Positions 11,281-63,497 of a DNA stretch of 64,000 bases are shown one piece after another. The DNA lies in IMG/VR virus record IMGVR_UViG_3300020470_000460, positions 10,411-74,410 of that record; one strand, 5' to 3'. A model generated the notes under the pieces. That model had not been told where the DNA came from. It ran no database searches and saw nothing but the letters and a program-made list of their open reading frames with translations. This stretch comes from a virus. The number at the start of each line of letters is the position of its first letter. Position 1 is the first letter of the stretch. The position numbers were made by a program, and so were the translations under genes.

Positions 11281-11444
11281 TTATCTTTACTCCTATTGAT
11301 TAAAGATATAAACTTATCATTAGCAAATGTCCCACCCAGACACACATCTATCTCATCACCATCTTTCCAATTCTCAGTACCATCCTTCTTAGTGTGTGCT
11401 AGTGCTACTGTTAGATCATCGATGATCTTTTGAGTTATCTTCAT
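11277..11444 (-). CDS. Small hypothetical protein (55 aa, MKITQKIIDDL...WKDGDEIDV)
   Basis: Manual translation; ATGA overlaps at both ends. Confidence 0.7.
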   Translation of the reverse strand: MKITQKIIDDLTVALAHTKKDGTENWKDGDEIDVCLGGTFANDKFISLINRSKDK

Positions 11445-12139
11445 GATAATAGTTCATTTAAAATATAATTATATGCCTTCACTATATCACCTTGTCCCTT
11501 CCTAAACAAATCCTTATCAAATGCCTTACCTTCTTTCCAGAGTCGCATTCCATCAGGTGATAGTTCATCAGCAACGAGTATATTCTGTCTAGAATCATAA
11601 CCAAACTCCAATTTAAAATCAACAAGTGTGAGACCTATATCTTTAAAGGTCTGTATTAGTATAGCATTAATATTACGTGCTAATGACTTGAGTACAGGTA
11701 GATTAGTACCAATATTAGTAAACTTCATTAATGCTATACGATCCTCTGTTAATAGTGGATCATCCTTAGCATCATCCTTAAGATAGAATTCAACTAATGG
11801 TGCATCAAATACTGTACCCTCTTCAATAGTAGTTTGTCTAACAATACTACCTGCTGCTATATTTCTAACTACAACTTCAATTGGTATAATATCTACTCTT
11901 CTACATGCCATTGCTGTTTTAGTTGGCATATTAACATAGTGAGTGGCAATGCCATTCAATTCAAGTAATTGAAATAAGCACTCAGATATCTTAGCACATA
12001 CCTCACCTTTACCCTCTGGAAAATCTACCAGTCTACCATTACCAGCAGTAACCTTGTCCTCATATTGTATGAGTACTGTCTCAGTATCATCAGTAGAGTA
12101 TACTGTCTTAACCTTACCTCTTAACTCTTCAATATTCAT
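11441..12139 (-). CDS. purC: SAICAR synthetase
   Basis: GKVKTVY, IPIEVVVRN.AAGS, LVDFKLEFG, ADELSPD..RLW, DKDLFR. Confidence 0.95.
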   Translation of the reverse strand: MNIEELRGKVKTVYSTDDTETVLIQYEDKVTAGNGRLVDFPEGKGEVCAKISECLFQLLELNGIATHYVNMPTKTAMACRRVDIIPIEVVVRNIAAGSIVRQTTIEEGTVFDAPLVEFYLKDDAKDDPLLTEDRIALMKFTNIGTNLPVLKSLARNINAILIQTFKDIGLTLVDFKLEFGYDSRQNILVADELSPDGMRLWKEGKAFDKDLFRKGQGDIVKAYNYILNELLS

Positions 12140-12465
12140 GATGTAATGTCCTTGGGTAGATCTTCATTGCCTGGATGTTCTTTAATAACACCCTTGTAAT
12201 TCTTTTTATTATAGAAGTGCTCATCTTCAATATACATATCATCCCACTCATCAGGATATACTAGCACATTTGTCTGTGCTACACCATGCAATGTGTCTTT
12301 CTTCTCCCATTCATGTGTGGTAACAGTAATATACTGATCACTTATGAAATTAATAACACCCTCATCTCCATCCTTTAACCTAACCTTCATACCTTTCTTC
12401 AATGATTTAAGAATGTTTCTTATCTCCAAAGGAATTGCCTCCGCTAAGAATATAGGAATGGTCAT
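12136..12465 (-). CDS. Conserved cyanophage hypothetical protein
   Basis: 109-aa ORF in operon. Confidence 0.7.
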   Translation of the reverse strand: MTIPIFLAEAIPLEIRNILKSLKKGMKVRLKDGDEGVINFISDQYITVTTHEWEKKDTLHGVAQTNVLVYPDEWDDMYIEDEHFYNKKNYKGVIKEHPGNEDLPKDITS

Positions 12466-13085
12466 AGTTTTAATTGATGGTCATATCCGAGACCATACTC
12501 ACCTCTTAATATGTAATTGAATGCCATAGAATACCTCTCGTCATTACTATTATTAATATTAATAGAATGTGTTAGATGTGATGGGAAGCATATTATCATA
12601 CCATCCTGCGGTGTGATCCTTGATACCCTCATATTATATGTGTTGTATTCCTTAACCTCTGGATATAGAGTAGTAGTACACCACGTAGGGTAAGTAGCAG
12701 GGACATAAAATGATATATCACCACTATTATATGGTATCTGAAAATACATAACACCACTGAATTGTGCGTTGTTATGTGAATGACCGTGCCCACTATCACC
12801 AGGATTATGTTTATTAATCCATGATGTTGTGTGCTCTAATTGATGTTTAGTCTCGTCTACTTGTAACACATCGTAGACATATTTTGATACATGATACTCA
12901 ACTGTTGCCCTTATTTCTGGTTGTGATACCAACCACTGAGTTTCACTCATCCAACCATTACTATATCCTCCATTGTCATGTTTACAAGGAGTATTAATAA
13001 CCTGCTGAATCATTGCATCAGTCAGATCTATTTTATTAATATATAATGGATTGGAAAATAAAGGAACTATCTGAGGATCTCTCAT
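12462..13085 (-). CDS. 2OG-Fe(II) oxygenase (TIGR02466-like)
   Basis: HSH, SGV.Y, FPSHLTH, RYSMAFN. Confidence 0.88.
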   Translation of the reverse strand: MRDPQIVPLFSNPLYINKIDLTDAMIQQVINTPCKHDNGGYSNGWMSETQWLVSQPEIRATVEYHVSKYVYDVLQVDETKHQLEHTTSWINKHNPGDSGHGHSHNNAQFSGVMYFQIPYNSGDISFYVPATYPTWCTTTLYPEVKEYNTYNMRVSRITPQDGMIICFPSHLTHSININNSNDERYSMAFNYILRGEYGLGYDHQLKL

Positions 13086-13086
13086 A

Positions 13087-13323
13087 TCAAATATGTTTCA
13101 TGTGCAAAGTATCAATAATTGATTCAATCAGTCCCCTATCATTCTCTGGAACATTTCCATAATGCTCGCAAGCATCTTTTTGATAGAAGAATAGTGCCTT
13201 CTTTAATAACTCTTTCTGATCGTGATTAAGAATGGCAGTTTTGAGTGACATGTACATTTGTGACCCCTTCCCCATTAGGTCTTGTGCAGAACTATTTATT
13301 AGTGTATCTAGTTTCTTGGTCAT
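13087..13323 (-). CDS. Hypothetical protein
   Basis: 78-aa ORF. Confidence 0.65.
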   Translation of the reverse strand: MTKKLDTLINSSAQDLMGKGSQMYMSLKTAILNHDQKELLKKALFFYQKDACEHYGNVPENDRGLIESIIDTLHMKHI

Positions 13324-14030
13324 GTCAACAGTAATTTCTCGATTGTCTTGGAATCGAAACCAACGACTCCCATATCATTAGGTGGTGCAATACCACGTTT
13401 GTTATCCATCTCAGCACTGGTGAATAAACTTTGTCTCTTTTTTGGTTCCATGTACTTAAAGGACATGATATATCTATTTATCGGATACCTATTGGTTGGT
13501 GGTCTACCTGAATGGGGTACTCTCCCATCAAATACTACTATTCTACCAGGTATAGGTGACACAATACGTTGTGCTTCTAACCTATGGTCATAGAATACAG
13601 TCTCACCACCAAAGTTAGGATTCCATTCAGGGTTAAGATATAATACTACTGTCTTATTATCCTCTACCCAATATGGTGCGTCTACATGCACACCAGGTGT
13701 ATCACCTGCCTTAAGCACATTAATATATGCACTGTATAACCAGTCACGAGGGGGCATTTTTGGGCAAATTGCTTCCAAATATTCCAGACATTCTAGGTAT
13801 AGTGGATCCTCACTCGCATCTAGTCCTGAATTTTGAAAGTAAGTAGGATCACTAACTGGTGTGAAATTATATAATTGATGTGTCCAATATGTATTCTCTA
13901 ATTGTACCTCTGGTCTTGCTGGAGTTGGTGGATCATCTGTCCGTGTGAACATATAAGGTAAGAACATTACCTTATCAAATAATTCTTGTGATGCTAGTTT
14001 AGTATCAAATACTTCAATTGGAAAGTTCAT
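13320..14030 (-). CDS. 2OG-Fe(II) oxygenase, prolyl-hydroxylase-like
   Basis: HVD, YLNPEW...GGET.F, HSGR, R.....FK. Confidence 0.88.
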   Translation of the reverse strand: MNFPIEVFDTKLASQELFDKVMFLPYMFTRTDDPPTPARPEVQLENTYWTHQLYNFTPVSDPTYFQNSGLDASEDPLYLECLEYLEAICPKMPPRDWLYSAYINVLKAGDTPGVHVDAPYWVEDNKTVVLYLNPEWNPNFGGETVFYDHRLEAQRIVSPIPGRIVVFDGRVPHSGRPPTNRYPINRYIMSFKYMEPKKRQSLFTSAEMDNKRGIAPPNDMGVVGFDSKTIEKLLLT

Positions 14031-14784
14031 GAGTGTTTAGTTTATACCATTTTCTATTAATAGGTCTCAAGTGTGGTAACATATGCTGCATAGGTACACT
14101 AACAGACAATCTCTTACCAGTTGGCATCGCTTGATGATAACAACGTGCTGGAATGTATAATATATCACCTGGTTTTAATACGTGATCTATTACACAATTC
14201 ATCTCTCCTACATTCTCATCATGCTCAAGAGAATCAACTGCAACACTACTTACTTCAAAATCAAACTCATCCTTCAATTGCTTAGGTATCTTCAATAGAT
14301 TACTACATCTATTACTATATACTTTCCAATGTGTCTCTCCTTCTACTTGTATTATAAAATTATTTGCTGTGTCTTCATGCACTCTGAATGAATGACATGG
14401 ACCTAAACCTGCATAGATATGAAATGCTGTCTTACCATCAAAATATTTCTCAAACTCTTGTATTAATTCTTGCTTCTTACGGAACCCTTGATCGAAATTA
14501 TTAATAATTAAATTATGTCCTTCCTCCCATGCTTGCATTATATCTTTTACTTCAGCACATGGATTTGACCAACAACGTTCATACTGTTTAAGATCAAAGA
14601 ACTGTATGATCTGCTTATCAATAAATGTAATAGAATAGAATTGTGGATTGTTGAGACAATACTCTACATCATCCCATGTTGCAAATACATGAGGATCCTC
14701 AACAATACCTTCCCATAGTTCAGGTGCATCATCAATTGCCCAGTTTTTTGCTGTCGATATTTTAGTTAGAAGCGAAGATATCAT
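14014..14784 (-). CDS. JmjC/cupin hydroxylase (RoxA/YcfD-like)
   Basis: F..HED, IQVEG.T.W, L.PGD.LYIP...YH. Confidence 0.85.
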   Translation of the reverse strand: MISSLLTKISTAKNWAIDDAPELWEGIVEDPHVFATWDDVEYCLNNPQFYSITFIDKQIIQFFDLKQYERCWSNPCAEVKDIMQAWEEGHNLIINNFDQGFRKKQELIQEFEKYFDGKTAFHIYAGLGPCHSFRVHEDTANNFIIQVEGETHWKVYSNRCSNLLKIPKQLKDEFDFEVSSVAVDSLEHDENVGEMNCVIDHVLKPGDILYIPARCYHQAMPTGKRLSVSVPMQHMLPHLRPINRKWYKLNTHELSN

Positions 14785-15421
14785 GATCGCATTTAAAATT
14801 AATGTTTAATGTTACACGGTACGCATGGTTACCGTATGGATTAGTTGAAGCATGGAACTGATGTCCATCGAATACAAATAAACTATTTGCTTCAGGTGTT
14901 ACTCTCTTATGTATAGTATATTCTTGGTTCCTTCCTTTATACCATCTCTCATCTACAGTCCCATAGTTAGGGTCATCATATTGATCAAAGAATACTGTAT
15001 CACCATTTGAATCATGTAGATAAAATAGTGCTGCATAATGATCTTCTTCATTATCAGTGTGTGGACAGTTATGGTGTCCCTCCTTACCTATGTCTGTTAT
15101 TAATGCTAATCTTAATCTAAAAAACTCTACCTCATGTGGTAGAGAATCTTGTATAGCATCTATCAATGGTAAGAAATGGGGTAACCAAGGACTCTCTACA
15201 CCATCCTGATCTAATAACATATGGACAAACCCGATGGATCTCTCCTTCTCAGGCACTTCATTCCTTATCTCTTCACCACCAAATTTCATATCAGTAGCGA
15301 AATCATATGATATATCCTCTGATATAAAATACCAAGGAAATCCATTTTGTCCCGATACTATTTTATTTAAGCGAGAGAGGTACGTTGGACCTATTATATC
15401 TTTTTTGTGGATATACTTCAT
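14762..15421 (-). CDS. 2OG-Fe(II) oxygenase
   Basis: PHTD, GDT.FF, FDG...HAS, R...NIN; start MKYIHK at 15421. Confidence 0.85.
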   Translation of the reverse strand: MKYIHKKDIIGPTYLSRLNKIVSGQNGFPWYFISEDISYDFATDMKFGGEEIRNEVPEKERSIGFVHMLLDQDGVESPWLPHFLPLIDAIQDSLPHEVEFFRLRLALITDIGKEGHHNCPHTDNEEDHYAALFYLHDSNGDTVFFDQYDDPNYGTVDERWYKGRNQEYTIHKRVTPEANSLFVFDGHQFHASTNPYGNHAYRVTLNINFKCDHDIFASN

Positions 15422-16049
15422 CTTCACGATAATAATCAGAGAATACGTGCATATTAAATGATAGAGATATTCTATCATCCTCACTAGCACTTCTATCAAC
15501 GCTGTGCATTAACCATGATGGAAATATTACCATAGTACCAGGTTTTGGTTGCACATACCAATTGACGTAATTATGCTGATGCTCATGCCTATCAAAATTC
15601 TCATCGCATCCCCATGATTCTTTGAGACATTGATCTGCATATGGTCTGTGGAATTGTAATTCACCACAACAGCAGTTAGGTATCTTTGCATAGTATACAC
15701 CAGCAAACATTGATCCTGAATGCGTGTGGACTGCATTACTATCACCATACTTATTAATGTTTGCCCAGAGATTACTTAATCTAACAGTATAATCATTAAA
15801 TCCAAACTCATCAGCAGCAGCATATGTATTTAATTGTATCTGCTTATGTAAGTCTTTAAATGGTGTGTTATCAATATATGGTACTACAAAATTATTTGAT
15901 TGCCATCCACCGATATTAGATTTACTCATACCTTTAGGATCTTCCTTCTGCACCTCATAGATAAAATCTACTATTAGATCATTATCTAGATCACAGTCCT
16001 CAAATATCCACAGTGGTGTGGGAAATAATAACTCAGTCCTTAGTTGCAT
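15363..16049 (-). CDS. 2OG-Fe(II) oxygenase (TIGR02466-like)
   Basis: LFPTP, SN.GGWQS, HTH, FPSWLMH, RISLSFN. Confidence 0.9.
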   Translation of the reverse strand: MQLRTELLFPTPLWIFEDCDLDNDLIVDFIYEVQKEDPKGMSKSNIGGWQSNNFVVPYIDNTPFKDLHKQIQLNTYAAADEFGFNDYTVRLSNLWANINKYGDSNAVHTHSGSMFAGVYYAKIPNCCCGELQFHRPYADQCLKESWGCDENFDRHEHQHNYVNWYVQPKPGTMVIFPSWLMHSVDRSASEDDRISLSFNMHVFSDYYREDEVYPQKRYNRSNVPLSLK

Positions 16050-16425
16050 CCTCGGTTACCTCTTCACTAGCAGGGAGTGCACCCTGTGGTTCTTCATCAT
16101 TATTAAATACAAAATCTCTTTCAGTTATATTAGGATCAACATGCTTTTTAAATAATGCTAGTGCTTCAACTGCACCACTTAACTTATTAAGTGTATCCTT
16201 CTTAGTCTGCAAATCTTCTAGTGATATCTTAGTAATAGTACTAGTATAGTGCATATTATCTAACGCTTCTTGGAGTTTATAATACTCACTCTTAGTATCT
16301 TCATACTGTTGTAGAAAGTTCATTACCAATTCGTCAAAGGATATAAGACCTTCAATTTCGTTTGGCAGTTCAGTTGATAATCCTGCTTTCTCAGCAAGAT
16401 TCACTTCTCTTACGTCTTCTGGCAT
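16033..16425 (-). CDS. Hypothetical coiled-coil protein
   Basis: 130-aa ORF, coupled. Confidence 0.7.
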   Translation of the reverse strand: MPEDVREVNLAEKAGLSTELPNEIEGLISFDELVMNFLQQYEDTKSEYYKLQEALDNMHYTSTITKISLEDLQTKKDTLNKLSGAVEALALFKKHVDPNITERDFVFNNDEEPQGALPASEEVTEDATKD

Positions 16426-17309
16426 TACTCAAACCTCTCTTTGTTTTTATTTAGGGAAAGAATTTTCTTTTGATTGTCGATGCGTCCTTTAAGTGTGGTC
16501 ATCTCAGGGAAACTCATGTACCTGTGATAGTCCATGATTTCATTATTCTTAATGTCCTCCTCATTAGCATCTTCAACTATAACATCAAACTCATCATTAT
16601 TCAACCATTGTCTTGGAATAGGAATCCATTGAGCGAGTGGTGTACCTGCCTTAACAAGATACTCACCCTCTTCAATGGCATGCCAGAATAATTGTAGATT
16701 GACTTCATATGAATAGGATGGATCTACTATACCTGTTGGTATACTAAACCTATCTTCATCATAATATGGCACTGGTATCTGTAAGAATACCACATCTTTA
16801 TGTGCTTGCACCCTCCAAGGTAGTTCTAATTTAACTACCATAGAGTTAGTTGGTCTCTGTTGATCAACTAAGTGTGACATACCCTCTGTCTGCTCAGGTG
16901 CATGTGCTTTAACAAATGATTTACCACCTGCATCAAATAATACTTGTGATATCCAAGAGAAATTCTTTGCTTCACCATCTTGTGATATAACAAAATCTGC
17001 TGGACATTGTAGTACCCATCCACTCTCAAATAATTGATGTAATGCTGGACATGTTGCTGCGTGTTGGAATAAACCATCATAATCTGCATCACCTACACCA
17101 TAATTAAGTAATGCAGTGTGATGATTAAATAGTTTCTTGACCTTCATTACAGGACAAGCACTATCCTTACCATAATATTTCTTTAGTGCATCATTTACCC
17201 ACTTTCTTTTTATCTTCTTAGCAGGTATCCAAGGTTGTAATGCTGCCACACCTCGTTGTACTGAGTAGAATCTTACCCACTTCTTGTTCTTTTTAAACGG
17301 ATTCCACAT
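16425..17309 (-). CDS. Conserved phage protein (DUF6065/dUTPase-fold-like)
   Basis: CP...GW...P.D, PW, GIVD, KAGTPLAQ.IP motifs. Confidence 0.55.
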   Translation of the reverse strand: MWNPFKKNKKWVRFYSVQRGVAALQPWIPAKKIKRKWVNDALKKYYGKDSACPVMKVKKLFNHHTALLNYGVGDADYDGLFQHAATCPALHQLFESGWVLQCPADFVISQDGEAKNFSWISQVLFDAGGKSFVKAHAPEQTEGMSHLVDQQRPTNSMVVKLELPWRVQAHKDVVFLQIPVPYYDEDRFSIPTGIVDPSYSYEVNLQLFWHAIEEGEYLVKAGTPLAQWIPIPRQWLNNDEFDVIVEDANEEDIKNNEIMDYHRYMSFPEMTTLKGRIDNQKKILSLNKNKERFE

Positions 17310-18864
17310 AGATATTATCCTTTAGATATTGATAATGAGATGGTAATGTATCAACCCACTCTAACATATGCTCTTTATTTTTGCAATAGTCTTTATGATA
17401 TTGTTCAATCTCTTTGAATCTTTCTTCATCTGCTCTCTCATTTAATATAGATCTAGTAAATGGTTTGTATCCCATTCCTGCTGAAATATATATTGTCCCT
17501 TCACCTAACATACTAGGATCATATACCTTAGTCTCTAATGTATCTAATAATCGTCTATAATCACTAATAGCATGTAATGATGACTCATCAGGATTATCAG
17601 TAAATTTATAGAATCTTTCAACATTATTAGTGGCATCCCTCCAGTATGGAGTATCTTCTCTCATACTGAAAGTATAATGATTTACCACGAAATTCTTATA
17701 TGATTCTAATAGTTTATTAGTAGCATAATTATATGCTATACGATCTTGATTAACTACATGTCCATCACGAGTAGATAATATATCATCTAAGAAAATAATA
17801 TTATCATGTGTAGTGACCAGTCCAGTTGATTCTAATGGTTCTATGAATCCATATGCTAGACCAATACCTACAACATTATTAACCCATCCCACCTTGTGCT
17901 TACCATGCTTTATTTTTATAGGCATTAATGGGCATTCTTGGTCATCTAGATACTCTCTAAACTCCTCCTCTGCCTCAGCATCAGAGATATATTTACTAGA
18001 GTAAACATATCCTGTACCTATATTATTCCACATGGGAATATTATATACCCATCCATTCTTCATTGCAACACAGTCAGTGAAAGTATCCATCTGTGTCTCT
18101 TTATCCTTATATTCAATATGTGTTGCTAATGCTCTATCATTGAATAATTGATCTGTGAATGGAATAAATGGTACACCCATGTGCTGCTCTAATAGCAGTG
18201 ATCTAAATCCTGTGCAATCTATGAATAGATCAGCACTAATTGCTTGACCATCTGTTGTAGTGATAGCAGATATATTTCCATCAGGTGTCTTAACTACATT
18301 ATGTACTTCACCTACTAAATGATGACAACCATTTGGTACTGCTATATTATCTCTTAAATACTCACCAAACTTATCAGCATTGAGATGATAAGCAAGATCA
18401 GTATCAGGATTATAATATGAATCAGGTATCTCTTTGGTTATCTTACCATGCTCTGTTGGATATGTTAATGGATTAACAAACCTAGCAAACTCATCTGAAT
18501 CATAATCATATACCCATGATGCCTCAAAGTATTTCTGAATATGAAATGGTGTCTCATCACGTGGTGGACCAAATGCTCCAAAAGGATATTGAAATGACTC
18601 ACCCTTTCCTTCTTTAAAATTCTTAAATCTAATTGATGACTTATATGTAGCATTACAATGTGTCATCCAGTCTTCATCCTTAAGACCTAATCTTAATAGA
18701 AATCTATTAAAATCTGCCAGAGTTGATTCACCTACACCTATAGGTTTAATATCAGGAGATTCTATTAGACATATCTCAATGTCTGGATGTGACTTAGATA
18801 GCAATGCTGCTGTCATCCATCCTGATGTACCACCACCTACAATACAAATAGATTCAACTCGCAT
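17293..18864 (-). CDS. prnA: Flavin-dependent (tryptophan) halogenase-like
   Basis: GGGTSG, GVGEST, ATYK catalytic Lys, FIDCTGF, GWVYNIP, FIEPLESTG. Confidence 0.9.
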   Translation of the reverse strand: MRVESICIVGGGTSGWMTAALLSKSHPDIEICLIESPDIKPIGVGESTLADFNRFLLRLGLKDEDWMTHCNATYKSSIRFKNFKEGKGESFQYPFGAFGPPRDETPFHIQKYFEASWVYDYDSDEFARFVNPLTYPTEHGKITKEIPDSYYNPDTDLAYHLNADKFGEYLRDNIAVPNGCHHLVGEVHNVVKTPDGNISAITTTDGQAISADLFIDCTGFRSLLLEQHMGVPFIPFTDQLFNDRALATHIEYKDKETQMDTFTDCVAMKNGWVYNIPMWNNIGTGYVYSSKYISDAEAEEEFREYLDDQECPLMPIKIKHGKHKVGWVNNVVGIGLAYGFIEPLESTGLVTTHDNIIFLDDILSTRDGHVVNQDRIAYNYATNKLLESYKNFVVNHYTFSMREDTPYWRDATNNVERFYKFTDNPDESSLHAISDYRRLLDTLETKVYDPSMLGEGTIYISAGMGYKPFTRSILNERADEERFKEIEQYHKDYCKNKEHMLEWVDTLPSHYQYLKDNIYVESV

Positions 18865-20311
18865 ATAGATTCTCCTTATAGTAATCGTATGGGCACTGTA
18901 ATTTATCTATACCCTTCCAAGGATCAGGTACATGCTCTGGTACCGTGCCACCTGCATAGTAGTCAAGTTCTTTATAAACTAGATCACTAAATGGATTCCA
19001 TCCTTGACCTGCTTGGACATAGAATGATCCTTCACTTGATAGATCACCCCAGTTATATGCGTCACCAAATGTTGAAGATGGTAATCCTAGATTCCTCTGG
19101 AATCTAAAGAAGCAATGATCATCAGGATAATGCTTATCACATATATGCTGCCAATATGGTGTGTCATTACGTTGAGTATATGCAAAGTGTGATGCTACAA
19201 ACATAGCAAACTCATCGAAACTACCATTACAATTATTATTAAATGTATCTCTCATTAGTTGTGTAACAGTATCTCTACCATCCATCACACGTAAGAACAT
19301 CAATAAGAAATTATGTATGGATAGTATACCATTAGATTCTAATGGTTCAAGGAAACCAGCAGACAATCCAATTGATATTACATTACCATTCCACATCTCC
19401 TTTCTTCTACCTGTTGTCCATTTAATAACACGGAACATCTTGTCAGTATATGCTCCTACATCTGACTCTATATTATCTGCAAGATAATCTCTAAACTCAT
19501 CTATTGCTTCTTGATCTGAGCAGAACTTATCACAATATACATATCCACTACCTATTCTAGTCCACGTGGGTACATTCCAACACCAACCATTATCAAGAGC
19601 AACACAATCTGTGACTGGTTTCATTTGCTCTTCTTTATTATTATAGGCAAACCTGGTCACAACTGCACTATTATTTGGCAGTATGTCACTCATATCCACC
19701 CAAGGTGAATCATTTAATAGTGATTTGAATCCTGTGCAATCAAAATATAGATCTGCTTTAGGTAATCTCTTAGGGTTTATCTTCCTCTTAACATGTCTAA
19801 CACCACGAGGTAGTGCAAAATTATCTCTTAACCACTCACCAAACTTAACTGCATCAAAATGGAATCCAGTATATTTGTGTAGATCCCAGTAATCATTTGT
19901 TAATGGTAGTTTATTCTGTGTTACACATGCTGCTGCATAACTATAGTCTTCAGCAAACTTAGAATTATTCCATCCATACTTCTTCTGATAATACCACCAC
20001 TGTGCAGGTTCAAATAAATCACCCCTTGGCGGACCAAATGGGTACTGCCAAGGGGTATCCCCTTTCTTATGAAAATTATGAAATCTTACACTTGCTTTAT
20101 ATGTTGCATCACATGCCTCCATCCAATCCTCATCCTTCAGATCAAGGAAGTGACACCATAGTCTAAAAAATTGTGTGGTTGACTCACCTACACCAACAGA
20201 GGGAGTCTTAGCATCTTCGTACAAAACAATATCCCAATCGGGATATGCTTTGACCAGCGTAGATGCAGTCATCCAACCAGCGGTACCACCGCCAACAATA
20301 ACAATTTTCAT
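18854..20311 (-). CDS. prnA: Flavin-dependent (tryptophan) halogenase-like
   Basis: GGGTAG, GVGEST, ATYK, GWCWNVP, FLEPLESNG. Confidence 0.9.
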   Translation of the reverse strand: MKIVIVGGGTAGWMTASTLVKAYPDWDIVLYEDAKTPSVGVGESTTQFFRLWCHFLDLKDEDWMEACDATYKASVRFHNFHKKGDTPWQYPFGPPRGDLFEPAQWWYYQKKYGWNNSKFAEDYSYAAACVTQNKLPLTNDYWDLHKYTGFHFDAVKFGEWLRDNFALPRGVRHVKRKINPKRLPKADLYFDCTGFKSLLNDSPWVDMSDILPNNSAVVTRFAYNNKEEQMKPVTDCVALDNGWCWNVPTWTRIGSGYVYCDKFCSDQEAIDEFRDYLADNIESDVGAYTDKMFRVIKWTTGRRKEMWNGNVISIGLSAGFLEPLESNGILSIHNFLLMFLRVMDGRDTVTQLMRDTFNNNCNGSFDEFAMFVASHFAYTQRNDTPYWQHICDKHYPDDHCFFRFQRNLGLPSSTFGDAYNWGDLSSEGSFYVQAGQGWNPFSDLVYKELDYYAGGTVPEHVPDPWKGIDKLQCPYDYYKENLYAS

Positions 20312-20335
20312 AACGAATCTGTTCTGTTTTGTATT

Positions 20336-20764
20336 CTACCCTGGAGGTACCCAGTTGTCAACCCAAGGATCCCAAGGATCTCTTCCTTCTAGTTGGATCT
20401 TCTTAGGATCTTGTACAAATGGGGGAATAGATGCTGGTGCAGCAACAGTTGCTTTCACGTTTGCTACGTGATCTTTCCAACGTGTACCACCATCTAATGA
20501 GTCTTTGTACTGCATATCCAACTGTTCACCTACGTCACCGTAAGCAATAATTCTGTCAACGACTGCTTCTTCACGTAAATCTTCATTGTCATGATGATCT
20601 ACTAGCACACCATTGACCATTTGCTTATCAAAGTTAGCGTCATCAGGCACTTCACACCACTTCATAGTTGCATCAGCACCTTCATAAATTTCAAATTTGT
20701 CTGCTTCATCACAGATATCAGATAATGCACCTGTGTCTTTAGAAACGATTGCCCATTTAGCCAT
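20336..20764 (-). CDS. Putative tail-fibre assembly/chaperone protein
   Basis: R..AY.DVGEQLDM.Y...WKDHV..VK motif; follows fibre genes. Confidence 0.55.
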   Translation of the reverse strand: MAKWAIVSKDTGALSDICDEADKFEIYEGADATMKWCEVPDDANFDKQMVNGVLVDHHDNEDLREEAVVDRIIAYGDVGEQLDMQYKDSLDGGTRWKDHVANVKATVAAPASIPPFVQDPKKIQLEGRDPWDPWVDNWVPPG

Positions 20765-20795
20765 GATTGATTAAATCTCCTTGTAAATCTATTTA

Positions 20796-21620
20796 TTAAC
20801 CGTAGTATTCGTAAACTACTACTACACCTTCTCGACCTCTAGCACCTCGGTTACCCTCACGAGCACCATTACCACCTGATCCCCAAGCAGCATGTGATTG
20901 ATGCCTATGGGAATAATTTTCTTGCTGGTGACTAGCAGGTTGTGATCCACCCATATAGGATGCACCAGACGTATAGTTACCGTATTTAGACCAGTTACCG
21001 TAACCATTTCCACCGCCACCATAGGCGTTCATGTTACCACCTGATCCATTACCACCATACCCACCAGCGTGTTGCTGTGAGCAGTTGGCACCAATACCTG
21101 CCGAAGCACTACAGTATCCACCAAAAGATGATCCGTTACCGTTACCACCACAACCAGCGTAACTAGTACCACCACCTGGGTTACCAACTGAAACACTTAC
21201 AGATGATACATTACTTACATCAATAACTCTTTCAGAGAATCCACCAGCACCACCTGATTCACATTTACCTGATCCTCCACCACCTGCACCAACTACTTGG
21301 ACTCTAATACTTTTTACATCAGATGGTCTATACCATGTACCGTTACCAGTCCATACTTGCATGGATCTAAATCCAGCACCACCACTACCTCCACCTGATA
21401 TATCTGTTGACCAGACGAGGTTTGTACCATTGGTGCTTAAGAATTGTCCTGACTGACCTGAGAAATCAGGTATATTGAAGTTAGAACTACCAGTAATAGT
21501 ACCATTTATGTTTATGTCATTGACCTTGAGCGTCCCGTTGCAGGTGATAGATCCACTCGATAGAGTGAAACCACCTAGACCAGCGAGGTCAGTAACTCCT
21601 GTAACTTTAAGAACACTCAT
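20796..21620 (-). CDS. Glycine-rich tail-fibre/adhesin-like protein, paralog 3
   Basis: Start MSVLKV at 21620; GTW..P..V....V.VVGAGGGG...G.VVV.E.YG. Confidence 0.8.
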   Translation of the reverse strand: MSVLKVTGVTDLAGLGGFTLSSGSITCNGTLKVNDININGTITGSSNFNIPDFSGQSGQFLSTNGTNLVWSTDISGGGSGGAGFRSMQVWTGNGTWYRPSDVKSIRVQVVGAGGGGSGKCESGGAGGFSERVIDVSNVSSVSVSVGNPGGGTSYAGCGGNGNGSSFGGYCSASAGIGANCSQQHAGGYGGNGSGGNMNAYGGGGNGYGNWSKYGNYTSGASYMGGSQPASHQQENYSHRHQSHAAWGSGGNGAREGNRGARGREGVVVVYEYYG

Positions 21621-22426
21621 CCGTAGAACTCCTGAACGATAACGATACCTTCTCTTCCTCTGGCACCACGACCTCCGTGTTTTGCTCCATTTCCACCAGC
21701 ACCCCATGCACAGTGTGATTGGTGTCTATGAGAGTAATTACCTTGGTTATGAGAGGAAGGTTGTGTGCCTCCTATGTATGACATACCAGCAGTGACGCAA
21801 CCGAATGACCAGTGAGATCCATGTCCGTTACCTCCACCACCATATACATTCAGGTTACCACCTGAACCATTTCCACCAATTCCTCCAGCATGCTGTTGTC
21901 TACAGTTTGCACCGTATCCTCCAGACGCAGAGCAATAACCACCGAATGATGAAGTATTACCTCCACCACCACATCCAGAATAGTTAGATCCTCCACCTGG
22001 ATTACCTACCGAAACTGATATAGATGATACGTTTGATACATCTATTACCCTTTCTGCCATTCCACCAGCACCACCAGATTCAGTATAACCTGATCCACCG
22101 CCACCAGCACCTACAACAGTAACAATAATAGTACCTACATCAGATGGTTTATACCATGTGCCATTACCAGTCCATACTTGCATGGATCTGATACCAGTAC
22201 CAGCACTAACTCCTGACCAAACATACTCAGAACCAGTGGATCTCAATGCTTTACCTTCGTTACCACCCATAGGAGGTACAACGAAAGTTGATCCACCACG
22301 AATCGCACCGTTAATGACCACATTAGAGCATGTCAGGGTAGTTGTGGCAGTGATACCACCACCAGCAAGCATGAATCCTTGTGCTCCAGTTAAGTCTTTT
22401 AGTGCTGATACTTTAAGTTTTGACAT
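21617..22426 (-). CDS. Glycine-rich tail-fibre/adhesin-like protein, paralog 2
   Basis: Same architecture. Confidence 0.8.
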   Translation of the reverse strand: MSKLKVSALKDLTGAQGFMLAGGGITATTTLTCSNVVINGAIRGGSTFVVPPMGGNEGKALRSTGSEYVWSGVSAGTGIRSMQVWTGNGTWYKPSDVGTIIVTVVGAGGGGSGYTESGGAGGMAERVIDVSNVSSISVSVGNPGGGSNYSGCGGGGNTSSFGGYCSASGGYGANCRQQHAGGIGGNGSGGNLNVYGGGGNGHGSHWSFGCVTAGMSYIGGTQPSSHNQGNYSHRHQSHCAWGAGGNGAKHGGRGARGREGIVIVQEFYG

Positions 22427-22429
22427 GTC

Positions 22430-23239
22430 TTAACCGTAAAATTCATGTACAACTACGACACCTTCACGACCTCTTGCACCACGTCCACCTTCTCTACATC
22501 CATTACCACCTGATCCCCAGGCAGCATGTGATTGGTGTCTATGTGCATAGTTTTGCTGTTGGTGAGATGCAGGTTGTCCTCCACCCCAATATGATTTACC
22601 ACATGTGTGGTTACCATAAGTGTAATGAGATCCGTGTCCTGATCCCCCTCCACCGTAAATATTTAGTGATCCACCTGATCCGTTACCACCATATCCTCCT
22701 GCATGTTGCTGAGAACAGTTAGCACCGATTCCTCTTGAAGCACTACAGTATCCACCGAATGACGATGAGTTTCCGTTACCACCACATCCAGCGTAATTAG
22801 TACCACCACCAGGATTACCTACTGTAACAGATACAGATGATACGTTAGTTACATCTATCTGTCTTTGTGCTGTACCTCCAGCACCACCTGATTCCATGAA
22901 TCCAGATCCACCTCCACCAGCACCAGTTACAGTCACCATAATGGTTTTAACATCAGATGGTTTATACCATGTACCGTTACCAGTCCAGACCTGCATAGAT
23001 CTAACACCAGAAGCAGATGATAAAGTACCCCAAGTGAGTGCTGACCCATTAGTTGAGATATATTCATCAGTGTGACCTGATGGATTGGGGAGAATATATG
23101 CAGACGAACCTGCTAATGTACCACTAATTTCTATGTCTTGTACATTAAGAGTACCATTGGCAGTGATACCCCCACTCGTGAAAGTAAACCCTCCAATACC
23201 ACCTACGTCTTTTATAGCTCCCAGGTTTAACTGTGCCAT
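22430..23239 (-). CDS. Glycine-rich tail-fibre/adhesin-like protein, paralog 1
   Basis: Same architecture. Confidence 0.8.
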   Translation of the reverse strand: MAQLNLGAIKDVGGIGGFTFTSGGITANGTLNVQDIEISGTLAGSSAYILPNPSGHTDEYISTNGSALTWGTLSSASGVRSMQVWTGNGTWYKPSDVKTIMVTVTGAGGGGSGFMESGGAGGTAQRQIDVTNVSSVSVTVGNPGGGTNYAGCGGNGNSSSFGGYCSASRGIGANCSQQHAGGYGGNGSGGSLNIYGGGGSGHGSHYTYGNHTCGKSYWGGGQPASHQQQNYAHRHQSHAAWGSGGNGCREGGRGARGREGVVVVHEFYG

Positions 23240-23276
23240 ACTAAACTACTACCTGTATGTTTCTATTTATCATTAT

Positions 23277-23894
23277 TTATATCAGATATTTACCACCGTG
23301 TCCTTGATTCTGAGCAAAGGGATTATGTTCACTTATGTCTAAGCAACTACTCATACCCTCAAAATCAGCAGACAAATTGAATGCGATAGATATCCTATCA
23401 TCATCACTCTCATTCTCAGTCACGTCATGCTCCAACCATGATGGGAAATATATTAATGTCCCTGGTTGTGGTTCGATTTCGTGATAATCTAAACCATCAT
23501 TAAAATACTCATGATCTCTTTGCACTTGGACTAATGGACCTCTAGGATCCCAAAATCTTATGCTACCTGAGTATTTAGGCACCTTCACATAGTATACTCC
23601 TGATAATAATATATTAGTATCAGCATGTAAATGCCTCTTATTACTAGCACCTTTAGGGTTTATATTACACCAAGAGTATACACACAAATCCTTTAATGGT
23701 TTGTCCTCTCTAAATGGACAATTAGCAGCAATAAGATCTACCCAATCCCTATTATAAAACAAATCACCCTGATAACCTCCATTACTGGAGTAAGGGTGAT
23801 TAGGTTCAGTCTTAGAGAAATTATATATCTCTTCTGCTAACTTATCATTGTCAAAATCAATTCTCTTAATCCAGAGAGGGGTGCCAAATATCAT
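23277..23894 (-). CDS. 2OG-Fe(II) oxygenase (TIGR02466-like)
   Basis: HLH, SGVYY, FPSWLEH, RISIAFN. Confidence 0.9.
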   Translation of the reverse strand: MIFGTPLWIKRIDFDNDKLAEEIYNFSKTEPNHPYSSNGGYQGDLFYNRDWVDLIAANCPFREDKPLKDLCVYSWCNINPKGASNKRHLHADTNILLSGVYYVKVPKYSGSIRFWDPRGPLVQVQRDHEYFNDGLDYHEIEPQPGTLIYFPSWLEHDVTENESDDDRISIAFNLSADFEGMSSCLDISEHNPFAQNQGHGGKYLI

Positions 23895-23908: not shown

Positions 23909-24784
23909 TTAACTAAAGTTTCGATAATGTCCTAGGACTACAAATTCTTCGTTATCATCTTGGTTTTTAGGTACCTTATCTATAATAAGGAAGTCACACA
24001 TAGCATAGTCATTACCCATACTTGGACCTCCTCTGGTTGTGCACCATTCAATAGGACAGTTTACACCAAGAATACTTATAGAGGATGGTAATCCGTTAGC
24101 ACCTGCATTCTCACAAATAACTCTAAAGTGATATAAACTACCATCACCATTGTGCTCATCCATATCAGTGAGATTTAATCTCCAGTTACCACCACCATTT
24201 CTTGTAACATATATTGTGTTACCATTGTTAATACTATGAGTTACATCACCACTATACTCAGCATAAAACTTACAATGCTCTTTACGACCACCTGAGAAGT
24301 GCATTCCAGTTGATCTAAAATCTTCAGTTATTATATCTACAACCTCAAGGTTTAACATGTCATCACCACCGAGGATATTCCACGTGGCATTATTTTCAAT
24401 CGTGACAGTATAACCGTTTGCAATAGTAATAGGACCTGCTGAGAAACCGTTGGTGAATTCCACACCACCGTTAGCAACTGGACCTATAGTTAAATTCTCT
24501 TCAATAGTAGTGCCGTTAGTCCTAATTATACTATTCTCACCAACACTTGGACCTCCTCCACCTACGTCCGTCCAACCTGGAACACCCTGAGCAGCATCTT
24601 GCTTATAGATCTGTGCCATGTCCTCGGTACTATTATACACAATGGTACCATAGGCAGGTGTGCCCAATGCTGTTACTGCTGATTGGTTAAGAGCAGGTAG
24701 ATTGAGTTGCTCTGTCAACTGTAGTGCCTCCATTATGGCACGAGTTGAAGCATCAATCTGATTTCCAATTATCTTGGTGGACAT
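23909..24784 (-). CDS. Tail-fibre-associated structural protein
   Basis: IIRTN..TI.EN.TI...NG.SAGPITI..G.TVT motif; late promoter CTAAATA at 24801-24807. Confidence 0.65.
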   Translation of the reverse strand: MSTKIIGNQIDASTRAIMEALQLTEQLNLPALNQSAVTALGTPAYGTIVYNSTEDMAQIYKQDAAQGVPGWTDVGGGGPSVGENSIIRTNGTTIEENLTIGPVANGGVEFTNGFSAGPITIANGYTVTIENNATWNILGGDDMLNLEVVDIITEDFRSTGMHFSGGRKEHCKFYAEYSGDVTHSINNGNTIYVTRNGGGNWRLNLTDMDEHNGDGSLYHFRVICENAGANGLPSSISILGVNCPIEWCTTRGGPSMGNDYAMCDFLIIDKVPKNQDDNEEFVVLGHYRNFS

Positions 24785-24809: not shown

Positions 24810-27800
24810 TTATATAACGAGTTCACGTATCTGTATGTTATCTCCTGTCTGTGGTGTAGTGCCAACAGAGAAGTCTACAGAGTTTGCAGTAACAGTATAA
24901 TCAACACCAGGAACTTGAGCAACACCATTTAGGAATACTAAGAGTGAATATGCTGTATGTCCAGGAGATATGGCAAATGATGTAGCAACACCATTACCTG
25001 TATACATGACACCGTTGTTACTATTAGTAACACCAGTTGCAAGGGTATACTTATCTGCACATCCATACTTACCAGTCACATCTATATCACCTGTAATTGC
25101 TACATTACCTGTGATCCTCATTCTATTAAGTGCGTCTGGTGCTTCACCAATACCATAATGAGTCACACCTGAGAACCTATTAGATGTAATAGGTGCAGTA
25201 TCACTTAGACCAAACTTATACCAAGTACCTGAGTCATATATCCAACCTAGGTATGTTCCTGGAGTCCAGTCTACATTATAACAAATATCACCAGTGTTGA
25301 ATGCTGATCCTGCGGTTACTGTTGGATTACCAGTACCATCATCCTCAGCAAGGAATGTATTCTTCAAAACAGTACCATCATCGTTAGATAAGGTAAAGTT
25401 TAGTGTCTGCAATGTATCCTGAGAAGTTATCTTCTTCTGGAATGTAGCAGGACCAGAGAATACTGATTCCAACTGGTTAGATGCACCACCGATAACAGTC
25501 AATTTATCAGTAAGCACAATCTCACTGAAGGTCTCAATAGTTGTACCTTCTTCACCCAACACGTTAAGTTGAGCAATATCTTCGTTAGTGATCTGACCTG
25601 TAACTGGGTTAATAACCTGGTTACCAACAAACAACTCACCATCACTGTTAACACCAGAGTAGTATGCAACACCCGCAGATTCTTTAAGTGACTGTGATAG
25701 TCTGACCTGTGCTGGTGTTAATACTTCTACCTGTGTAGATGGGAATGCAGTTGAGTAGTTACCTGGACCAAATCCAAGATACTCAAACGTGTGACCTGAT
25801 GCTCTGAGAATTGAGTATCTTCGTAACTCACAGAGTAGAGGTTGTACTGAGTTATCAGCATTCAACTTCAGTGCAATCTTTCTTTCTTCAGCATCACCTA
25901 GTCTTGCAGTAACACTAATACCATTCAATACGTTAGATGTAGTGTTATATCCTAGGTTATTCTCTGTCTCCAGTAAGAAGAACTGTGATGTCTCTTTAGT
26001 AAGAGATCTTTGTGTGTCCTCATTAGGAGTAGGAGATGCACCGTCAGTAGTAGTAACAACACCAAGTGTTTCATTACTTGCTATAGATACTGCTGCTGAT
26101 GGGTCTGCTACTGGGTTGTCTCTGTCAAATGCAGGATATAAGTCTACAACTGCCTGAGAGAATGCGAAGTCATTAAAGTTAGACGTTGATGGTGCTACAC
26201 TAGCATTAAGTAACGTCAAATAATATATACCGTCAGTCACACCCTTAACAAACGTTTGATGTGTCTCTACAGCATATATGTAATATGCTTTGGTATATGC
26301 TGGGCTATTGGTTTCACTACTTCGTGGTTGGACAACAAAACCTGTGATAGGTGCTCTAGGTACGGGAAATGCGTCCTTGTCCAATACATAGCGGTACCTG
26401 TAAATCCTGTCAACAAGGTTTCTAGCATCGGGTACCCTCCTTATAAAGGTAGTAGGTGTGAATCCAAGGTTTTGATATATGCTATTTGCTTGTAGTGTTG
26501 TGTATATGGTATTAGCAGATCCATCTACTTGTAAATACCACTGACTATTAACACTATCCCATTTAACTGGGTTGTCATCGTCACCTGCTTTAGTACCTGT
26601 TACCAATGGTCCTGAAGGACTTATATCAGCATAGTGCGTAGTAGGTTCACTTGCTCCACTGGCAATTAAGAGCACATACAGGCGATCTGGGGTATTAACG
26701 TCATCACGTCTAGCACCCACAGTATAGCCTTGTACTTTCGCTGGTGGTTTGCCAGTTTCTACAGTATATCCATATAAAAATAGTTTTGTCGGGTCTGCAA
26801 CACTCTTAGTCTTATTGATATCAATAGTAACCCAGTTGATTGATATCTCTGATACATCACTTAAAGACTTAGGTGGTATTACATGTGTAACTTGCCCTGC
26901 TTTATCTTTCGTAAATGCTGCACTCTTAAAGCCTTTAGATCGGAGAGAAGTGTTACCAAAGTTTGAGTTCGAGTTGGTAATCGAGAGATCTCCTCCGCTG
27001 TCAGCGAAGAAATGGTCTCCAAATCCGACAGCGAATACTGAGACGACTTGGATGAATGCGTCGTTAGATGCGTAGATGTGTCTGTGTCGCCAACCTTTTC
27101 TGTATTTGGCGAGTCCATTAATATGAGCACCAGATCCCGCAGCTTGGGGTTCATATGCTCCAGTAGTTTGGTTGTATATGACGAATGCTCTGTCATCTTT
27201 CTGTAGGGAGATTCCAGTAAACTGGGCAACAACCATTGACTTGAAACCTGTTGCTTGACTACCATCAGCATGCATACCATTGATACCCCATACTGATCTT
27301 AGAGAGCAGTTGAAGACATATGGTGAGGCAGAGTCAACCGTATCAATCTCGACCTTGACTAGTACATTATTACCCAGTGCGTTACCTGATGGCTCGGAAG
27401 ACATCTGGTATGTAAATTGGTTACCTTGTGCACTGGTTACCAGGAAACTACCATTATAGAGGAGAGCATCTTGGTCAGTAGGACCAGTAACACCAGATAT
27501 ATTAACAGCGACACCCACGGAGAACCCATGATTCTTCGGGTTACCGAGTTCATCAACTGTAAATGCTGTTGCAGTTTGTCCATTTCTTATGATCTGTGAT
27601 ACTGCAAATTCATCAGAGATCGGACCTACAATTCTGTTTTCCTCGACCCTTGCTTGCATCTGGTCTTGAGAAACAATACCAGAGGTGTCAGGAATTACAG
27701 CGTATCCTTTTGATATCTTTTGGTAATATAATTCTAGATCTTCTACGTTAGCAAACTCAAAACACGTGAGTTTATGGTGTGAGAAGTTTGGTGCAATCTG

Positions 27801-62324: not shown

Positions 62325-63497
62325 TTACCAATTGTTTCGTAGTAGTGCTTTGAAATCTTGCTGTGTTTCCATGTTGCAATATGTAGCGATGACAGATAGG
62401 AAACTAAAGTAACTGTAATTGTATGCAGTCCCTTGTACCCTGTGTCTCCACCCACCTTTCCTTGCATCCTCTAGTATATTATTCCATGTGTCAGTGGGTT
62501 TCCAAAGACTCTTAGCATAGTCCCAGAAGGGAGTATCATACTTAGATCCATGTGCATAATGATAGAGAAGGAAGTTTGCATTCTCTTTGATGTCTCGTTG
62601 ATTGTCATCAACCATCTCTTGTAGGTTAGCACCTTGCATGATGTAACGCAAGGTTCTTTCTATCCACACCATGTATCCTGTTATACTTGTTGCCTCTAGT
62701 GGTTCAATAAAGAAGTATTTGTTTCCATTCATAAAGATCCTACCATCTAAGACAGGATTCTTTGCCATGTAATTATGGAATGATCTCCAACCAGTTACCT
62801 TTGCTTCACCAAACTGCTCTTGGAAATTCTCTAGTGCCTCATCATCTGATGTGATGTCACTGTTGAAAAGATATCCCATTGATGTCCTACTCTGTAGTGG
62901 GATAACAAAACACCAACCATCTTTAGTGGCAACATTATCAGTGGTGCAATAGACTCTACTATATGGTTCAGTTTCGGCCAATAGTACTCTGTTGAGGGGA
63001 TTTTCCAACTGATCATAGCGTTCAAAGGTCTCACTTGAGCACGTCCTTCCACTGAAGGGTGACCCTCCACAATCATAGATGTAATCAGCATCAATATTAT
63101 ATCCTACCTTCTTAGGGATGCACTTAAAGTATTGTGACATGTCATCACAAAACTTCTTAGGATCAAAGTGCATTGCCACTCTGTTAATACCAAAGTCATG
63201 GAACCAATCCTTACCACCCCATCCACTGTAACTTATACCTGTCTTAACTGTTTGATCCCAGTTAGCATCTCTCCAGTTACAATGTAACAGTGGACCCACT
63301 GAAGACCATGCCTCTGGAGAACTAGTTTCAAACTGTGTAATAAGATCTAATAGATTAGGCCACGACCCTGATCCCACTGGTTCAATGGGTGCATCTGGAT
63401 CATAATAGATTTCGATCTCGGTGTTAGGATAGTGTGCCTTCCATGCCATTGCAGTAAGGATACCTGCCAACCCTTTACCTATAATTGCTACTTTCAT
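62325..63497 (-). CDS. Divergent flavin-dependent halogenase-like protein
   Basis: GKGLAG, PVGSG, TVK.GI, GWCFVIP, FIEPLEATS. Confidence 0.8.
   Translation of the reverse strand: MKVAIIGKGLAGILTAMAWKAHYPNTEIEIYYDPDAPIEPVGSGSWPNLLDLITQFETSSPEAWSSVGPLLHCNWRDANWDQTVKTGISYSGWGGKDWFHDFGINRVAMHFDPKKFCDDMSQYFKCIPKKVGYNIDADYIYDCGGSPFSGRTCSSETFERYDQLENPLNRVLLAETEPYSRVYCTTDNVATKDGWCFVIPLQSRTSMGYLFNSDITSDDEALENFQEQFGEAKVTGWRSFHNYMAKNPVLDGRIFMNGNKYFFIEPLEATSITGYMVWIERTLRYIMQGANLQEMVDDNQRDIKENANFLLYHYAHGSKYDTPFWDYAKSLWKPTDTWNNILEDARKGGWRHRVQGTAYNYSYFSFLSVIATYCNMETQQDFKALLRNNW

Follow-up and report, generated by a model that had tools for sequence, protein, structure and literature searches.

We analyzed a 64-kb window of a 74-kb virus contig from IMG/VR (IMGVR_UViG_3300020470_000460; all coordinates below refer to the window), in which tail-fiber genes are directly followed by flavin-dependent halogenases and a series of Fe/2-oxoglutarate (Fe/2OG) oxygenases. 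The contig derives from a T4-like cyanophage, with baseplate hub, tail, fiber and gp32 genes further along the window on the same strand, and its closest isolate relatives are P-TIM40, S-WAM1 and P-RSM6. Near-identical DNA was found in marine metagenomes from approximately ten studies, and a near-identity DNA search of the region against the phage collection returned no match. The minus strand from position 28382 down to about 10000 forms a single, densely packed gene array. Pfam, PHROGs and NCBIfam profiles gave the following order of genes, with lengths in amino acids (aa).

24810 to 28382, minus strand: FIB, a 1190-aa distal tail-fiber protein (phrog_529 tail fiber, E 0)
23909 to 24784, minus strand: p291, a 291-aa fiber-associated virion protein (phrog_29506/7459; weak matches to tail-fiber PHROGs)
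23277 to 23894, minus strand: ogA, a TIGR02466/PF13759 oxygenase between the fiber genes (PF13759, E 1e-24; TIGR02466, E 8e-27)
22430 to 23239, minus strand: gly1, a Gly_rich_2 fiber-tip paralog of 269 aa (PF21722, E 9e-8; phrog_863/21412 tail fiber)
21617 to 22426, minus strand: gly2, a Gly_rich_2 paralog of 269 aa (PF21722; alignment of the family, hereafter GLY)
20796 to 21620, minus strand: gly3, a Gly_rich_2 paralog of 274 aa from the homologous start (PF21722; phrog_863)
20336 to 20764, minus strand: s142, a 142-aa protein (phrog_1787) with the Trp-rich C-terminal tail AWDPWVDNWVPPG
18854 to 20311, minus strand: HalA, a 485-aa flavin-dependent halogenase paralog (PF04820, E 3e-86, 290 bits)
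17293 to 18864, minus strand: HalB, a 523-aa VirX1-type flavin-dependent halogenase (PF04820, E 2e-108, 364 bits)
16425 to 17309, minus strand: p294, a 294-aa partner protein (phrog_7084; predicted dUTPase-like beta-core fold; invariant Cys87)
16033 to 16425, minus strand: cc130, a small acidic protein of 130 aa with no family match
15363 to 16049, minus strand: ogB, a TIGR02466-type oxygenase (TIGR02466, E 2.5e-30; invariant HxH...H...R)
14762 to 15499, minus strand: ogC, a divergent 2OG oxygenase (weak PF13640 (2OG_Oxy_3)/DUF6445; phrog_274, phrog_1644)
14014 to 14784, minus strand: a JmjC-type oxygenase of the MINA/NO66 kind (PF08007 (JmjC_2), E 2e-18; H136-E-D138 ... H217)
13320 to 14030, minus strand: a prolyl-4-hydroxylase (P4H)-type 2OG oxygenase (PF13640, E 2e-10; H115-V-D117 ... 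H173)
13087 to 13323, minus strand: s78, a small protein (weak phrog_712; syntenic in relatives)
12462 to 13085, minus strand: ogD, a PF13759/TIGR02466-type oxygenase (PF13759, E 4e-19; HxH...H...R)

The array continues behind ogD with s109 and purC. Within the module, genes are spaced by −23 to +37 nucleotides (nt); the single apparent overlap of −137 nt is an artefact of the uncertain TTG start of ogC, which probably begins at an ATG at about 15421. The start of gly3 in the list of open reading frames (ORFs), 21707, was over-extended, and the GLY alignment places the homologous start at 21620. Every gene named in a preliminary description of the locus was recovered on the minus strand at the coordinates given above by ORFs, Pfam, PHROGs and NCBIfam. 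The layout goes far beyond chance: dozens of diverged loci repeat this order.

To measure this conservation, we took the best 80 IMG/VR loci carrying halogenases of the type of VirX1, the enzyme of cyanophage Syn10 (PDB 6QGM), and mapped all window proteins onto them. GLY genes lay upstream on the same strand in 49 of the 58 loci with at least 5 kb of sequence upstream of the halogenase, and s142 was also present in 45 of these 58. Downstream, p294 was found in 31 and the JmjC gene in 30 of the 46 loci with at least 7 kb on that side, and the full set was present in 25 of the 36 loci with both flanks. When halogenases were clustered at 70% identity, GLY was upstream in 24/30 clusters, s142 was upstream in 23/34 and p294 was downstream in 20/36. 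GLY-linked loci occupied every major subclade of the halogenase tree, and at least six small lineages were unlinked. In two of these unlinked lineages, the halogenase stood directly behind a tail-fiber-like protein (L047) or a baseplate-like protein (L070); p294 lay upstream in one unlinked lineage, and 2OG genes flanked the halogenase in two. A reverse set, the best 80 IMG/VR loci chosen by s142 alone, showed GLY upstream and a halogenase downstream in all loci with sufficient flank; across the 80 loci s142 was followed by a halogenase without exception, in some loci with a single 2OG gene in between, and by no other accessory gene. The gene order was kept down to 30–45% protein identity and at different genome positions. 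Conserved synteny of Gly-rich fiber genes with halogenases and 2OG genes, which had been set beforehand as a test of the proposed linkage, is thus strongly borne out at the level of loci, clusters and tree.

Cyanophage isolates gave the same picture. In all 14 isolate records with p294, the gene comes straight after a VirX1-type halogenase; 20 cyanophage records have s142, each time directly before a halogenase (one exception, S-B64, was found separately and is discussed below); and the 12 records with GLY carry it just upstream of s142, with the halogenase adjoining. Isolates with the module span Libanvirus, Ormenosvirus and Vellamovirus as well as S-CREM1, S-WAM1, S-SZBM1 and P-RSM6, and in S-RIM44 the module sits between a giant fiber gene and the neck genes gp13–gp16. 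A halogenase of any kind is present in only about 66 of about 480 T4-like cyanophage records (~14%), yet every isolate found with GLY has one. Module content varies: halogenases number one to five, p294 may be missing, and the sets of oxygenases differ. These results indicate that the array is a conserved accessory module of T4-like cyanophages (Kyanoviridae), in which a fiber-tip unit is joined to an enzyme set. The fiber-tip unit comprises a distal fiber protein, a virion protein, two to four GLY paralogs and s142; the enzyme set comprises one to several VirX1-type halogenases, usually p294, and several unrelated Fe/2OG oxygenases (TIGR02466, MINA/NO66 JmjC and P4H).

Within the fiber-tip unit, FIB is 85% identical to P-TIM40_39 and belongs to a family (T4-GC346) with virion proteomic support in Sullivan et al. 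2010 (PMC3037559), and p291 belongs to the Syn9 gp35 family (T4-GC347), flagged as virion-detected in a table of the same study. GLY proteins are annotated as "tail fiber assembly" under phrog_863. Their Atlas neighbors are viral clusters with 100% Gly_rich_2, some with DUF5907 or Mtd_N, and one bacterial neighbor cluster has phage tail repeat (PTR) domains. In the GLY alignment, Gly positions and Tyr149 are invariant, and His179, His202, His226, His235, His238 and Tyr164 are nearly so. Comparison with solved adhesins yielded no sequence match; Gly_rich_2 and phrog_863 are the matches that suggest GLY could be adhesins of the gp38 type. Two contigs from an RNA library were 100% identical to positions 21874–22170, within gly2; they come from one marine metatranscriptome with only a few short contigs of the phage, and such contigs carry no transcript-start, strand or timing information. 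Contigs of two metagenome studies have joints between 20854 and 21683/21686 that remove one GLY unit, and other inter-paralog joints were also seen; the tandem GLY array therefore varies in copy number, with recombinants, in natural populations.

The small protein s142 is encoded immediately downstream of a fiber/adhesin gene in the window and in all related loci. Its AlphaFold2 model was confident (pLDDT 92). Foldseek returned nothing at E ≤0.001, the best match being the Mu tail-fiber chaperone Tfa (5yvq_B, E 0.9); VIA-align gave Z 4.3 at most, with the Pam3 fiber at Z 4.0, and an XkdW-containing Atlas cluster (0.86) serves as a lead only. As for the earlier label, s142 is a plausible candidate for a fiber chaperone. 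The helical core motif of s142, AYG..GEQLDM.Y.D...W..H...VK, also occurs in small ORFs adjoining the tail-fiber genes of MEP301, a Methylophilales phage without a halogenase, and we therefore place s142 on the fiber side of the module on the strength of this motif. In halogenase-linked s142 proteins, a variable Pro/Glu-rich linker leads to a short conserved aromatic tail of one of the classes AWDPWVDNW.PP, MAWEPYP or P(A/C)W(K/V)RY.GW, and the s142 of S-B64, which has no adjacent halogenase, is 117 aa long and lacks the C-terminal Trp tail. The class of tail motif correlated with the presence of p294, but this was confounded by phylogeny and was not used as evidence.

Both halogenases scored far above the PF04820 cut-off of 21 bits. 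HalB aligned with VirX1 (6qgm) over its full length (residues 2–519, E 2e-148, ~47% identity), and HalA, which is shorter and more distant, aligned with E 4e-90; on these alignments HalB is an ortholog of the iodinase VirX1 and HalA a paralog. As in VirX1, the flavin adenine dinucleotide (FAD) motif GGGxxGW is kept in both (GGGTSGW/GGGTAGW in the 6qgm alignments), as are the catalytic Lys (VirX1 K79; ATYKSS/ATYKAS) and the active-site Glu with FxxPxxSxG (GFIEPLESTG/GFLEPLESNG, HalA having FLEPLESNG). The WxWxIP motif differs: it reads GWCWNVP in HalA (I to V) and GWVYNIP in HalB (second W to Y). Judged by these residues, the two halogenases look intact and active, which bears out the original assignment of two flavin-dependent halogenases from both PF04820 and the VirX1 alignment. 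No flavin reductase was found by Pfam among the genes scanned at 10–28.4 kb, and reduced flavin is presumed to be supplied by a host enzyme. For VirX1 itself, a large and accessible active site has been described, and no biosynthetic cluster is associated with it (PMC8407142).

Two further observations concern halogenases. Some related phages (L121–L130, L042 and L050) have tandem runs of four or five halogenase paralogs behind GLY–s142–2OG, without p294. The window also encodes a third ORF of the Trp_halogenase family (62325–63497, minus strand, 390 aa; PF04820, E 2e-30; FAD motif and EPLE Glu present), directly upstream of a 1255-aa virion-structural-like protein (58444–62211, minus strand, phrog_26996), a second case in this phage of a halogenase adjoining a large structural gene.

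The gene following HalB, p294, had been described as DUF6065-like. That label is weak, with 2 of 35 family members matching PF19541 (best E 0.0037) and the window copy giving no Pfam match at E up to 10. Its AlphaFold2 model (pLDDT 83) resembled dUTPases in Foldseek (E ~1e-3, TMt 0.5–0.6, 10–18% identity); the resemblance appears confined to the predicted beta-core fold, and a dUTPase identity was rejected because neither the sequence family nor the catalytic motifs agree. Homologs in 185,579 prokaryote genomes were limited to four contigs, all resembling cyanophage DNA: a 188-kb contig assigned to Nonlabens xiamenensis (L161, NZ_RMVE01000006.1), one from Euryarchaeota metagenome-assembled genome TMED129 (L160), and L162 and L163, the last a Prochlorococcus single-cell genome. 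These contigs probably stem from contamination, or from an infected cell in the case of the single-cell genome, and p294 is by its sequence distribution a phage-only, putatively cyanophage-specific protein. We also considered p294 as a phage counterpart of bacterial SapC; this was unsupported, as the contig has no SapC match and p294 homologs are only phage-like. Behind p294, cc130 is kept in the clade of the window and P-TIM40; the coiled coil ascribed to it earlier is putative.

All six oxygenases anticipated by the preliminary description, one at the fibers and five downstream, were found by profiles. Five of the six exceeded the cut-offs of double-stranded beta-helix family profiles (PF13759, PF13640 or PF08007), and ogC fell below (22 versus 27 bits). 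The metal triad HxD...H is present in ogA (H88-x-H90-A-D92 ... H156, with the Arg intact), ogC (H147-T-D149, with candidates for the distal His), the JmjC protein and the P4H-type protein, and the TIGR02466-type proteins ogA, ogB and ogD show the invariant HxH...H...R of their family alignment. The catalytic motifs thus appear intact. The TIGR02466/PF13759 family as a whole has an invariant HxH...H plus Arg in place of the canonical HxD/E...H triad; an HxG/HxA motif in ogB and ogD, as in Fe/2OG halogenases, was considered and rejected, since the family alignment reads HxH throughout. The nearest solved structures for the JmjC protein were MINA53 (E 4e-8), JMJD5 and NO66. The P4H-type protein matched an FlmC-family model (E 1e-19, below that model's cut-off) and, weakly, HIF prolyl hydroxylase and PPHD. 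Close homologs of ogB were found solely on marine phage-like contigs, none host-named, in a word-index search of limited sensitivity. A 2OG oxygenase has been detected in a virion preparation of S-SCSM2R (PMC12801897). The PHROG names "DNA endonuclease V" (phrog_274), "minor coat protein" (phrog_1644) and "ferrochelatase" (phrog_3531) sit on 2OG-oxygenase-like proteins in these cyanophage loci and recur in the RefSeq annotations of Syn9 and S-RIM44; they are probably propagated mis-annotations. Behind the oxygenase block, purC (SAICAR synthetase, 11441–12139, minus strand) lies in the same overlapping array and is followed by small ORFs and a DNA methylase gene.

We searched the module for promoters. 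The definition of a late promoter was a −10 element resembling TATAAATA close in front of a late gene, a −35 element not being required. The module has just two gaps longer than 30 nt, and each of them holds one or two T4-type late motifs; a third site, of the sigma-70 type, precedes HalA.

23240 to 23276, minus strand: 37-nt gap before gly1 with two late-promoter motifs, TATAAATA and GATAAATA (sequence motif)
20790 to 20797, minus strand: late-promoter motif AATAAATA in the 31-nt gap before s142 (sequence motif)
20333 to 20361, minus strand: sigma-70-type promoter-like site TTGACA-17-TAGAAT (11/12), which overlaps the 3' end of s142 (final codons and stop codon) immediately ahead of HalA

The motif before s142 confirms the late-promoter variant proposed earlier at about 20790. 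Among 74 distinct related loci, 44 have an ATAAATA no more than 60 nt upstream of s142, against a chance expectation of ~2% estimated from base composition. T4-type late promoters are thus predicted before gly1 and s142. The sigma-70-type site is the best match of its kind in the 19-kb region; the whole 64-kb window has only six that reach 11/12 or more, this one included. At 10/12 or better, it is present before HalA in 22 of 81 related loci and throughout the subclade of the window, and it recurs in lineages with a different s142 tail (12/12 in L137; 11/12 in L142, L071 and L082). P-TIM40-like phages retain of this site just the −10 element, in perfect form. Middle genes of Syn9 and P-TIM40 are reportedly under the control of host-like promoters. 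The enzyme block may therefore have transcription of its own in addition to read-through from the late promoter. Of the original proposal that the block is late and coupled to the fibers, the coupling is favored by synteny and by the conserved late motif, and the site before HalA permits earlier, uncoupled expression.

What do these enzymes act on? Our leading reading, held tentatively and at less than even confidence, is that they tailor late or fiber proteins of the phage itself; we infer this from the conserved linkage and the enzyme families. The specific version, in which VirX1-type halogenases and co-encoded Fe/2OG hydroxylases modify the receptor-binding fiber-tip proteins or the Trp tail of s142, is possible at low confidence. 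Under this model, the enzymes would build no molecule from scratch and would use a substrate already in the cell late in infection, most likely the phage's own late proteins, namely the Gly/His/Tyr-rich GLY paralogs and/or the Trp-bearing C-terminal tail of s142. With O2, halide and flavin reduced by the host, the halogenases would halogenate aromatic side chains that are exposed (iodide and bromide being the halides favored by VirX1), the oxygenases would hydroxylate His, Arg, Pro or other residues, and the modifications together could tune receptor binding or fiber stability. Such late proteins would be the most likely targets because of the position behind receptor-binding-type genes, the protein-hydroxylase affinities of two of the oxygenases and the open active site of VirX1.

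Several observations weigh against this assignment. In S-B64 (Shandvirus), fiber–gp149–GLY–s142 lies at 144–149.5 kb with no halogenase beside it, and the sole halogenase is 86 kb off, behind gp46/47; the fiber unit therefore need not have an enzyme block at its side. In S-PM2 and S-MbCM6, whose genomes have neither GLY nor s142, the halogenases are more divergent and sit within tRNA/hli/psbA islands. Linkage to the fibers therefore characterizes the VirX1 clade rather than cyanophage halogenases in general. An invariant Trp in GLY, considered as a halogenation target, was rejected, as the alignment has none. The Syn9 GLY homologs gp38 and gp39 have no virion-detection flag in the table of Sullivan et al., and Syn9 gp40, gp43 and prnA likewise lack virion proteomic support there. 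The conserved sigma-70-type site could drive the halogenases earlier than, and apart from, the fibers. VirX1 halogenates many free small aromatic compounds in vitro (PMC8407142), and conserved order in phage late regions can arise by descent alone. Four points hold our confidence down: the promoter ahead of HalA, the gene arrangement in S-B64, the absence of a conserved Trp from GLY, and the proteomic flags that are missing.

The published alternative has the halogenases and dioxygenases work one after the other on a metabolite of the host or an amino-acid-derived compound to give a halogenated, hydroxylated secondary metabolite, the position behind the fibers being historical; we regard this as possible but doubtful. 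Iyer and colleagues, who proposed it for the Syn9 cluster, drew on bacterial neighborhoods in which Trp halogenases and JmjC/2OG enzymes are combined with SapC and TonB receptors or peptide synthetases (PMC2938197). The activity of VirX1 on free aromatics points the same way, as do the host-type promoter before the halogenases, which fits metabolic-gene expression, and the location of other cyanophage halogenases in metabolic-gene islands. Yet Pfam, NCBIfam and PHROGs found no scaffold-forming enzyme, carrier protein or transporter among the genes scanned at 10–28.4 kb, the module has no SapC/TonB partner, and SapC is absent from the contig. We accordingly did not class the module as a secondary-metabolite biosynthetic gene cluster, which was defined by a scaffold enzyme, carrier or transporter. 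Small-molecule tailoring also leaves unexplained why the halogenase is held beside GLY–s142 or other fiber/baseplate genes across deep divergence, and the confinement of p294 to phage sequence speaks against it.

The enzymes might instead share no pathway at all: a slot behind the fiber genes would gather unrelated accessory genes, moved or inherited as a block and serving separate targets such as DNA/RNA repair or 2OG/nitrogen signaling. Cyanophage genomes contain many 2OG oxygenases at scattered positions, for which other roles have been put forward, including 2OG/nitrogen-stress or DNA-repair functions proposed by Sullivan et al. 2010 (PMC3037559); the variable module content and the S-B64 fiber unit, which works without the block beside it, fit this view as well. 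We nonetheless consider it unlikely, given that in the s142-centered loci a halogenase always follows s142 with at most one 2OG gene between, that 14/14 isolate p294 homologs directly follow a halogenase, and that the order survives such divergence and relocation. Least probable, and quite improbable in our estimate, are host macromolecules as targets (ribosomal/translation proteins or receptor precursors, modified so as to reprogram the host or keep progeny off cell debris): the nearest characterized JmjC/P4H relatives (MINA/NO66/YcfD and PPHD families) do hydroxylate ribosomal proteins or EF-Tu and a host-type promoter precedes the enzyme block, but the JmjC/P4H matches are weak (E 4e-8 to 6e-3), nothing ties the halogenases to such targets, and the fiber linkage goes unexplained unless the target is the receptor itself.

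For about 20 years, cyanophage "prnA" halogenases and 2OG oxygenases have been filed under auxiliary metabolic genes with no substrate assigned to them, reviews listing prnA as a gene of unknown role not found in hosts. VirX1 has become a well-studied biocatalyst, and the fiber linkage offers a solid, new and testable lead to the natural role of VirX1-type halogenases. Were the fiber-tailoring reading true, a viral structural protein would for the first time be seen to be halogenated by enzymes, and the natural function of cyanophage halogenases would be found; viruses would have a new means of tuning host recognition, and protein halogenation a new class.

The halogenase/dioxygenase/dUTPase-fold cluster of Syn9 was described by Iyer, Abhiman, de Souza and Aravind in 2010, who proposed organohalogen secondary metabolites and did not mention the linkage to fiber-tip genes or a late promoter (PMC2938197). 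A literature search found no paper on hydroxylation or halogenation of phage fibers. The cluster itself is thus already known, and its fiber linkage is not discussed in the literature found; new here are the conserved GLY–s142–halogenase order, the conserved late motif before s142 and the host-type sigma-70 site before the first halogenase. The Syn9 gp40–gp54 cluster, with counterparts in Syn10 and P-TIM40, shares the families and order of the window: a small protein, two Trp-halogenase-family enzymes, a dUTPase-fold protein with a conserved Cys, and tandem dioxygenases that include a MINA/NO66-type JmjC. HalA and HalB are 43–47% identical to their counterparts in these clusters. Syn9 has two GLY paralogs and ten downstream oxygenases, whereas the window has three GLY paralogs, five downstream oxygenases and an extra one (ogA) between the fiber genes; Syn9 also lacks a strong sigma-70-type site, which the window has before HalA.

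Three further systems invite comparison. Flavin-dependent halogenases of ribosomally synthesized and post-translationally modified peptide (RiPP) pathways, such as MibH and SrpI, act on peptide Trp, in some pathways on a C-terminal tail. They belong to the same superfamily, and the proposed mechanism would likewise involve Trp of a ribosomally made polypeptide, the Trp of s142 also being on a C-terminal tail; RiPP pathways differ in having a leader-peptide precursor, protease or other RiPP enzyme, which the module lacks, and the candidate substrates here are folded structural proteins. Among viral and bacterial 2OG hydroxylases of fiber or collagen-like proteins, the mimivirus collagen lysyl hydroxylase is a virus-encoded enzyme acting on a collagen-like protein. 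Modification of tail-collar/collagen-like proteins by oxygenases in bacterial operons was predicted by Iyer et al. (PMC2938197). These systems, too, co-encode oxygenases with Gly-rich fibrous surface proteins, which are their proposed or demonstrated substrates, whereas GLY does not consist of G-X-Y repeats, no glycosyl- or sulfotransferase is present here, and the halogenases are without precedent there. Finally, in T2/S16-type phages, small Gly-rich proteins, the gp38 polyglycine adhesins, stand right behind the distal fiber gene and are followed by a small chaperone-like gene, as in the module; in the cyanophages, these Gly-rich genes form tandem arrays of two to four paralogs.

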